This document shows, one piece after another, positions 1 to 906 of a stretch of DNA of 906 nt. Source of the stretch: Escherichia coli (lineage in GTDB: Bacteria > Pseudomonadota > Gammaproteobacteria > Enterobacterales > Enterobacteriaceae); assembly GCF_003334385.1 (NCBI RefSeq), contig NZ_QOWN01000142.1. One strand, given 5' to 3'. The position numbers were made by a program, and so were the translations under genes. The first letter of the stretch is position 1. Every line of letters starts with the position of its first letter. The notes under the pieces are model-generated. The model ran no database searches. It saw only the letters and a list, made by a program, of their open reading frames with translations, and was not told the DNA's origin.

Positions 1-906
1 AATCCGGTCATAGTCCATTGCCTGTGTCAGCATGGAGGCATACAGGGGGACTTCTGCACGATAAGCATTTTCACTGCGCAGATACCAGCTCTCATCACTG
101 TCCCGGTTGAGGGAGTAGTTAAAGGCACCGGCCTGCAGCTTATTCCCCTGGATAAAGGCCCCTTCCTCCGTGGTGGCACCGTTAATGGCTTCCACCACCT
201 GAATACCCTTACCGCTGGTCGCCAGCCCCGACGCACTGTTGCCGGCGTTCACCAGGTTCAGGATGGTTTTTCCGGTTGCCCTGCCACCGTCAATGACCAG
301 TCTGTCAGCATTGTTCTGTGCCATATCCGGGCGTACACGCAGGCTGATGGTGCCATTCTGCCCGTTCAGGTTTTTCACTTTCAGGGTTGCCGGTACGAAC
401 TTCCCTGTGCGGGTGGAGGTGAAATGAATCTGTCCGGCATGGCTGAGGTCATCCACCACCGACTGCACCGTGGCGTTATCGGGAATATTCCAGGTGGCAC
501 CAGAGGCGAGAGTGACATTCGTGGGGTCAATGGCACCGTTCAGCACAGTGCTGCCGGTCAGCTTCAGGGCTGTACCGCGCTGAGCAATGACATCCGTGGT
601 GACGGTACTGTCGTTCAGCGTCAGCGTGCCTTCATTCAGGTTGACGGCTTTCTGGGTGAGTGTGGTGTTGCTGACAGTGAGTGTGCCACTTCCTGATTTT
701 TCCACGCTGCCGTTACCGGTGAGAGAGCCTCCCTGCAGGAGTGCATCGCCTTCACGGATGGTCAGGGTATCGTTGTTCACCGTCTTCCCGGAAAGGGTAA
801 GTATGGCGCCGTTATTCAGCGTGGTGGTGCCCGCCAGTGTGCCGCCCCTGGCGGTGAACAGTCCGCCATTTACCGTGGTATCCGTGGCCGTATCACCGGC
901 GTTCAG
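1..906 (-). CDS. flu: Antigen 43 (Ag43) family self-associating autotransporter adhesin, internal fragment partial at both ends (5' end of gene beyond position 906, 3' end beyond position 1); covers C-terminal passenger beta-helix, autochaperone-like region and start of translocator domain
   Basis: Seen in sequence: the minus-strand frame with codons 906..904, 903..901 ... 3..1 has no stop codon across all 302 codons. Its translation is LNAGDTATDTTVNGGLFTARGGTLAGTTTLNNGAILTLSGKTVNNDTLTIREGDALLQGGSLTGNGSVEKSGSGTLTVSNTTLTQKAVNLNEGTLTLNDSTVTTDVIAQRGTALKLTGSTVLNGAIDPTNVTLASGATWNIPDNATVQSVVDDLSHAGQIHFTSTRTGKFVPATLKVKNLNGQNGTISLRVRPDMAQNNADRLVIDGGRATGKTILNLVNAGNSASGLATSGKGIQVVEAINGATTEEGAFIQGNKLQAGAFNYSLNRDSDESWYLRSENAYRAEVPLYASMLTQAMDYDRI. 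Composition is Thr/Gly/Leu/Asn/Ser-rich with no Cys, and short T-L-T / L-N-x-G beta-strand and turn motifs recur, as in AIDA-I-type beta-helical passengers. Established knowledge (recalled, no search run): this stretch, notably ...HFTSTRTGKFVPATLKVKNLNGQNGTISLRVRPDMAQNNADRLVIDGG... and ...NYSLNRDSDESWYLRSENAYRAEVPLYASMLTQAMDYDRI, matches my recollection of E. coli Ag43. No in-window start or stop, so both ends are truncated by the window. Confidence 0.88.
   Translation of the reverse strand, partial: MNAGDTATDTTVNGGLFTARGGTLAGTTTLNNGAILTLSGKTVNNDTLTIREGDALLQGGSLTGNGSVEKSGSGTLTVSNTTLTQKAVNLNEGTLTLNDSTVTTDVIAQRGTALKLTGSTVLNGAIDPTNVTLASGATWNIPDNATVQSVVDDLSHAGQIHFTSTRTGKFVPATLKVKNLNGQNGTISLRVRPDMAQNNADRLVIDGGRATGKTILNLVNAGNSASGLATSGKGIQVVEAINGATTEEGAFIQGNKLQAGAFNYSLNRDSDESWYLRSENAYRAEVPLYASMLTQAMDYDRI

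Follow-up and report, generated by a model that had tools for sequence, protein, structure and literature searches.

A 906-bp stretch of Escherichia coli DNA as an internal piece of agn43 (flu), encoding the end of the Ag43 passenger and its autochaperone

The locus raises the question of which protein is encoded by a stretch of E. coli DNA that is open from end to end on its minus strand, and of which part of that protein the stretch represents. A preliminary description had placed the window, that is, the whole 906-bp stretch that was analyzed, wholly within a minus-strand gene of the Ag43 type. The placement holds: the minus strand has 302 stop-free codons, their product shares 300 of 302 amino acids with K-12 flu, and RefSeq annotates agn43 at the matching places. 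The window is almost certainly an internal piece of agn43 (flu) that encodes residues 425-726 of the 1039-residue Ag43 pre-protein. Ag43 is a self-associating autotransporter of the type Va secretion pathway, and the gene segment is already known and well characterized. The near-identity to characterized Ag43 proteins agrees with the earlier view that this is a known system with nothing new in it.

The minus-strand frame and the gene to which it belongs

Six-frame translation of the window gave 302 residues with zero stops in minus-strand frame 0; the remaining five frames contain 1, 6, 18, 17 and 18 stops. At the base composition of the window (57.6% G+C) a run of 302 codons without a stop has a probability of about 1.9e-5, and a full-length open frame in any of the six frames appeared in 4 of 20,000 mononucleotide shuffles. 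The G+C content at codon positions 1, 2 and 3 (56%, 49% and 68%) follows the usual coding pattern. The supplied ORF track had missed the frame for want of its ends, as was supposed from the beginning, the ORF list omitting those that run off the ends; an ORF track limited to a window is systematically blind to genes that span the whole of it.

The identity of the gene is supported by protein and DNA comparisons. BLASTP aligned the translation without gaps to residues 425-726 of the K-12 MG1655 flu product (b2000), with 300 of 302 residues identical, where an alignment to roughly residues 400-730 of Ag43 had been expected. The K-12 flu DNA is identical to the window at 899 of 906 positions, and the 7 differences comprise 5 synonymous changes plus I676V and K680R, which are conservative changes with respect to K-12 Ag43. 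The agn43 CDS of E. coli 118UI (3120 nt) is closer, with 905 of 906 nucleotides identical and a protein 100% identical across the window; the match sets in 1272 nt (424 codons) downstream of the start of that CDS, and the reading frames are in register. The C-terminal end of the Ag43a alpha domain in the PDB (4KH3_A, residues 377-503) is identical to the window product at 127 of 127 residues. Among the NCBIfam families the best match is auto_Ag43 (NF033177), whose profile positions 504-635 of 948 align with window aa 170-302. With 315.6 bits the 302-aa fragment stays under the cut-off of 1200 bits for a whole-protein equivalog, because only 302 of about 948 profile positions are covered; the full-length 118UI allele reaches 1797.5 bits and K-12 flu 1874.9.

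A different autotransporter of the AIDA-I type (AIDA-I itself, TibA, or the SF-II Ag43/Cah of EHEC) in place of a K-12-type Ag43 would show the same architecture of beta-helix, autochaperone and barrel, and the window does give a weak match to the NCBIfam AIDA-I family, while SF-II and Cah genes align to its 3′ part. However, the AIDA-I match amounts to 52.2 bits against the 315.6 of Ag43, the full window is 99% identical to K-12 flu whereas the SF-II/Cah alignments are limited to the 3′ part at 77-84%, and TibA (4Q1Q) aligns with the N-terminal repeats of the full-length protein and with nothing in the window. The candidate is refuted by the identity values to K-12 flu on one side and to SF-II/Cah on the other, and its probability is negligible. 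The window is accordingly read as part of a K-12-type agn43 gene, an identification against which no result speaks.

A gene on the plus strand, overlapping agn43, was likewise considered, since plus frame 0 is interrupted by just one stop over its 302 codons and the ORF list includes plus-strand ORFs of 90 aa (ATG, 424-696) and 62 aa. The near-openness of plus frame 0 follows from codon usage, because the sense codons that read as antisense stops are almost absent from the agn43 segment (TTA, CTA and TCA number 0, 0 and 1). Moreover, the differences between alleles alter more residues in the plus than in the minus frame (38 versus 20 in EcPF5, 20 versus 7 in 10034292-3), neither strand of the window holds a promoter-like site, and RefSeq annotates only agn43 beneath the matches. 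The plus-strand ORFs were rejected as codon-usage shadows of agn43, the allelic changes being mostly silent in the minus frame, and an overlapping gene there has hardly any likelihood. What is encoded is the minus-strand agn43 segment.

Other scans of the window gave little. A search of both strands against Rfam at E up to 1 returned nothing beyond a chance match to a eukaryotic snoRNA (18.6 bits versus a gathering threshold of 35, E 0.56). Terminator-like sites are absent from both strands. No tandem repeats were found in the window, and the search for direct and inverted repeats yielded a single weak 25-nt pair plus an imperfect palindrome, so that the rungs of the beta-helix have no repeats in the DNA to correspond to them.

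Domains encoded in the window and their proposed working

In Pfam terms, the full-length 118UI allele has an ESPR signal peptide at residues 6-49, AIDA repeats up to residue 457, AC_1 at 573-690 and the barrel at 764-1015. The features that fall in the window are collected in Table 1; the window includes neither the barrel nor the signal peptide, nor the stem that mediates self-association and defines the class, nor the phase-variation switch.

Table 1. Features of the 906-bp window (a slash marks the cleavage point)
Feature	Position	Strand	Basis
agn43/flu CDS, internal fragment, codons 425-726 of 1039	1..906	-	Start and stop codons both outside the window
alpha43 passenger beta-helix, last 127 residues (Ag43 425-551)	526..906	-	4KH3_A identity; weak AIDA repeat
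alpha43/beta43 processing site, D/PTNVT, window aa 127/128-132 (Ag43 551-556)	511..528	-	Motif in the translation and literature
First 21 residues of beta43 (Ag43 552-572), from processing site to autochaperone	463..525	-	Cleavage motif and AC_1 boundary; same as K-12
Type-1 autochaperone (AC1), window aa 149-266 (Ag43 573-690)	109..462	-	Pfam AC_1 PF18883
Junction towards the beta-barrel translocator, residues 691-726	1..108	-	auto_Ag43 alignment; barrel past position 1

The preliminary description had recognized Ag43 passenger and autochaperone sequence in the product, and both parts were recovered, the former by the 4KH3 match over 127 aa and the latter by AC_1, which aligned over the entire model (1-114 of 114) with E 3.7e-19. 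Of the profile searches that it had suggested, Pertactin (PF03212) matched window aa 157-277 with E 4.5e-12, overlapping AC_1, and the AIDA-type repeat appeared as a weak Pfam match at window aa 2-33. The beta-barrel domain PF03797 gave no match in the window, because in the full-length 118UI allele the barrel does not start until residue 764. The autochaperone assignment extends to structures: residues 461-565 of the autochaperone-containing 7KOH align with window aa 175-280 (E 3.9e-35), 7KO9 also matches, and the IcsA autochaperone 3ML3 gives a weaker match (E 3e-4). The window thus carries a feature of type Va autotransporters, a beta-helical passenger that ends C-terminally in a type-1 autochaperone. 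Two further features of this class, a 12-stranded beta-barrel translocator at the C-terminus and an ESPR signal peptide at the N-terminus, are encoded outside the 906 bp and are present in the full-length 118UI allele.

To judge from the subdomain lengths given in PMC10058404, the passenger segment of the window probably corresponds to BL1, the ‘bottom of the L’ subdomain of subfamily SF-I. At the opposite end of the window, the junction stretch may act as a linker spanning the pore, as the general architecture of autotransporters suggests.

The putative scissile bond D551/P552 belongs to the motif D/PTNVT, which was read from the translation and on which the preliminary description was silent; the bond is encoded at plus-strand positions 523-528, and the crystallized 4KH3 chain stops exactly at the Asp of the motif. 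In Ag43a, whose numbering is offset by +1 (D552/P553), N-terminal sequencing of beta43 gave PTNVT and the mutation D552A blocks cleavage (bioRxiv 10.1101/2025.04.08.647479). The AC domain is composed of three beta-helix rungs with a hairpin cap, nucleates the folding of the passenger from C- to N-terminus and remains with beta43 once cleavage has occurred (bioRxiv 10.1101/2025.04.08.647479; PMC8993888). In the window, D/PTNVT lies 21 residues upstream of Pfam AC_1 and therefore the autochaperone would stay with beta43. PMC10058404 places the passenger cleavage between AC1 and the translocator, in disagreement with the N-terminal sequencing at D/PTNVT (bioRxiv 10.1101/2025.04.08.647479).

The literature on proteins 99-100% identical to the window product suggests the following working for the encoded parts. 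In the course of export the C-terminal barrel, encoded beyond the window, would insert into the outer membrane. The autochaperone would come out first and nucleate the stacking of the beta-helix rungs in the C-to-N direction. The L-shaped helix of alpha43 would have the BL segment as its base. The protein would then cut itself at D551/P552, alpha43 being held non-covalently by beta43 on the cell surface. Finally, the N-terminal stem, outside the window, would engage in a head-to-tail ‘Velcro handshake’ with the Ag43 of a neighbouring cell, giving rise to clumping and biofilm.

Phase variation of Ag43 sets Dam methylation against OxyR binding at GATC sites upstream of agn43, whose regulatory region contains three GATC sites overlapping the OxyR site. 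This region is separated from the window by about 1.3 kb or more, and no GATC occurs in the 906 bp. The gene is presumably intact beyond the window, expressed and phase-variable.

Distribution, surroundings and alleles

With the reverse complement of the window as query, matches were found in 4,089 of 5,426 complete E. coli genomes, the matches listed being annotated as ‘agn43: autotransporter adhesin Ag43’ or ‘Ag43/Cah family autotransporter adhesin’. In 2,389 genomes (44%) the best match covers the full window at 94.4-99.9% identity, and at least 25 complete genomes reach 905/906. The other matching genomes align by the 3′ part only, at about 77-78% over query positions 535-906 and about 82-84% over 663-906 and 676-906, and are annotated Ag43/Cah. 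These two groups of matches are the published SF-I/SF-II split (PMC10058404). In the complete genomes 7,125 matching places are chromosomal and 3 are on plasmids, with a median of 2 and up to 7 places per genome, which bears out the earlier statement that several alleles may coexist in a genome.

The gene had also been said to reside on prophage-like or island DNA. This is the case in K-12, where agn43 lies within the cryptic prophage CP4-44, and similar island neighbours are found in 118UI and EcPF5, both with a GTPase-family gene upstream of agn43 and a large hypothetical gene downstream. The order in 118UI is YfjI-family gene, GTPase-family gene, agn43 and a 2.5-kb hypothetical gene, followed by IrmA-family, DUF905, DUF932 and antirestriction genes. 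The layout of this 12906-nt neighbourhood runs parallel to that of K-12 CP4-44, although the cargo differs. No match was found among 50,697 phage genomes in a distant blastn mode that reaches down to roughly 65-70% identity; therefore ‘prophage-like’ has to be understood as cryptic elements or islands, not known phages. In the plasmid collection the full-length matches occur in megabase-sized records, most of 1.0-4.9 Mb, which are probably chromosomes or large assemblies filed as plasmids. In plasmid records of ordinary size (13-354 kb) all the Ag43/Cah alleles are divergent ones; a Salmonella and a Klebsiella record are among them. The window is a marker of accessory DNA, on islands or in cryptic prophages.

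None of the 5,426 complete E. coli genomes contains the exact 906-bp sequence, the best match being 905/906. The window differs from its 25 best matches by one base, the C at plus-strand position 361; this is the third position of codon 606 (GGG versus GGA), and the change is synonymous. The window's variant of codon 606 is shared by 98 other E. coli records, in agn43 alleles that are more divergent; some of these alleles are a second copy beside a near-identical one in the same genome. In strain 2014C-4135 the codon-606 variant is missing from one agn43 copy and present in the second. This pattern hints at an exchange between paralogous agn43 copies. That the present allele was shaped by gene conversion between agn43 paralogues, or is joined to an undescribed combination of SL stem and class, is unlikely.

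Comparison of six alleles (118UI, K-12, EcPF5, ES2, AZ153 and 10034292-3) gave 84 variable sites, of which 53, 19 and 12 fall at positions 3, 1 and 2, respectively, of the minus-frame codons. The spread of the allele differences is mosaic, in keeping with published recombination and domain shuffling in agn43. ES2 has a longer agn43 allele, with an annotated CDS of 3447 nt (NZ_CM184352.1 3683391-3686837) where K-12, 118UI and EcPF5 have 3120 nt, and its additional part falls outside the stretch that was retrieved. As to where along the gene segment single alleles depart, 22 of the 39 differences of ES2 lie within the first 151 nt, and 10034292-3 has none in the last 302 nt.

The same data bear on whether the window comes from an agn43 copy that is decayed, truncated or chimeric, a pseudogene. 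The gene is located in decaying cryptic-prophage or island DNA that is rich in pseudogenes and IS elements, some of the up to 7 matching places per genome are partial, and both ends of the gene lie beyond the window. Yet the window holds 302 consecutive intact codons, its protein is 100% identical to that of the full-length, intact 118UI allele, the sole nucleotide difference from that allele is synonymous, and the minus frame is open across the stretch in all six alleles compared, five of them besides 118UI. A pseudogene is consequently quite improbable, and the window is taken as part of a presumably intact agn43.

Subfamily assignment and comparison with known autotransporters

Ag43 is among the best-studied surface proteins of E. 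coli, with crystal structures, a self-association mechanism, a mapped processing site and a genome-wide classification. In that classification the SF-I module is EJ1-BL1-AC1E, found in classes C1 and C3, and the SF-II module is EJ2-BL2-AC1 (PMC10058404). On sequence grounds the window is assigned to subfamily SF-I as its BL1-AC1(E) module, being identical or nearly so to the C1 (K-12) and C3 (CFT073 Ag43a) references across BL and AC. Taking into account that: (i) BL1-AC1(E) is common to C1 and C3; (ii) the two classes are separated by the subtype of the SL stem (SL1a versus SL2b), and (iii) the stem lies past position 906, the class is not assignable from the window alone. The window can be annotated with confidence as agn43 (SF-I, BL1-AC1 module).

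Among the known systems, K-12 Ag43 (flu/agn43, b2000; C1, SF-I) has the same D/PTNVT motif and the same AC1 domain as the window product. Ag43a of uropathogenic E. coli CFT073 (4KH3; C3, SF-I) is 100% identical over the 127 alpha-domain residues that overlap, and its match to the full-length 118UI allele extends over residues 52-551 (E 1e-271); however, 4KH3 stops at the cleavage site and is without a counterpart to the autochaperone part of the window. The SF-II Ag43/Cah alleles (EDL933, UTI89; 7KOH, 7KO9) share the overall architecture and a homologous autochaperone region, but their DNA aligns with no more than the 3′ 25-41% of the window, at 77-84% identity, and the BL part is unaligned. 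AIDA-I, in which the passenger is processed autocatalytically (bioRxiv 10.1101/2025.04.08.647479), and IcsA likewise combine a beta-helical passenger with a type-1 autochaperone domain, although their similarity in sequence is only distant and they are other proteins with other functions.
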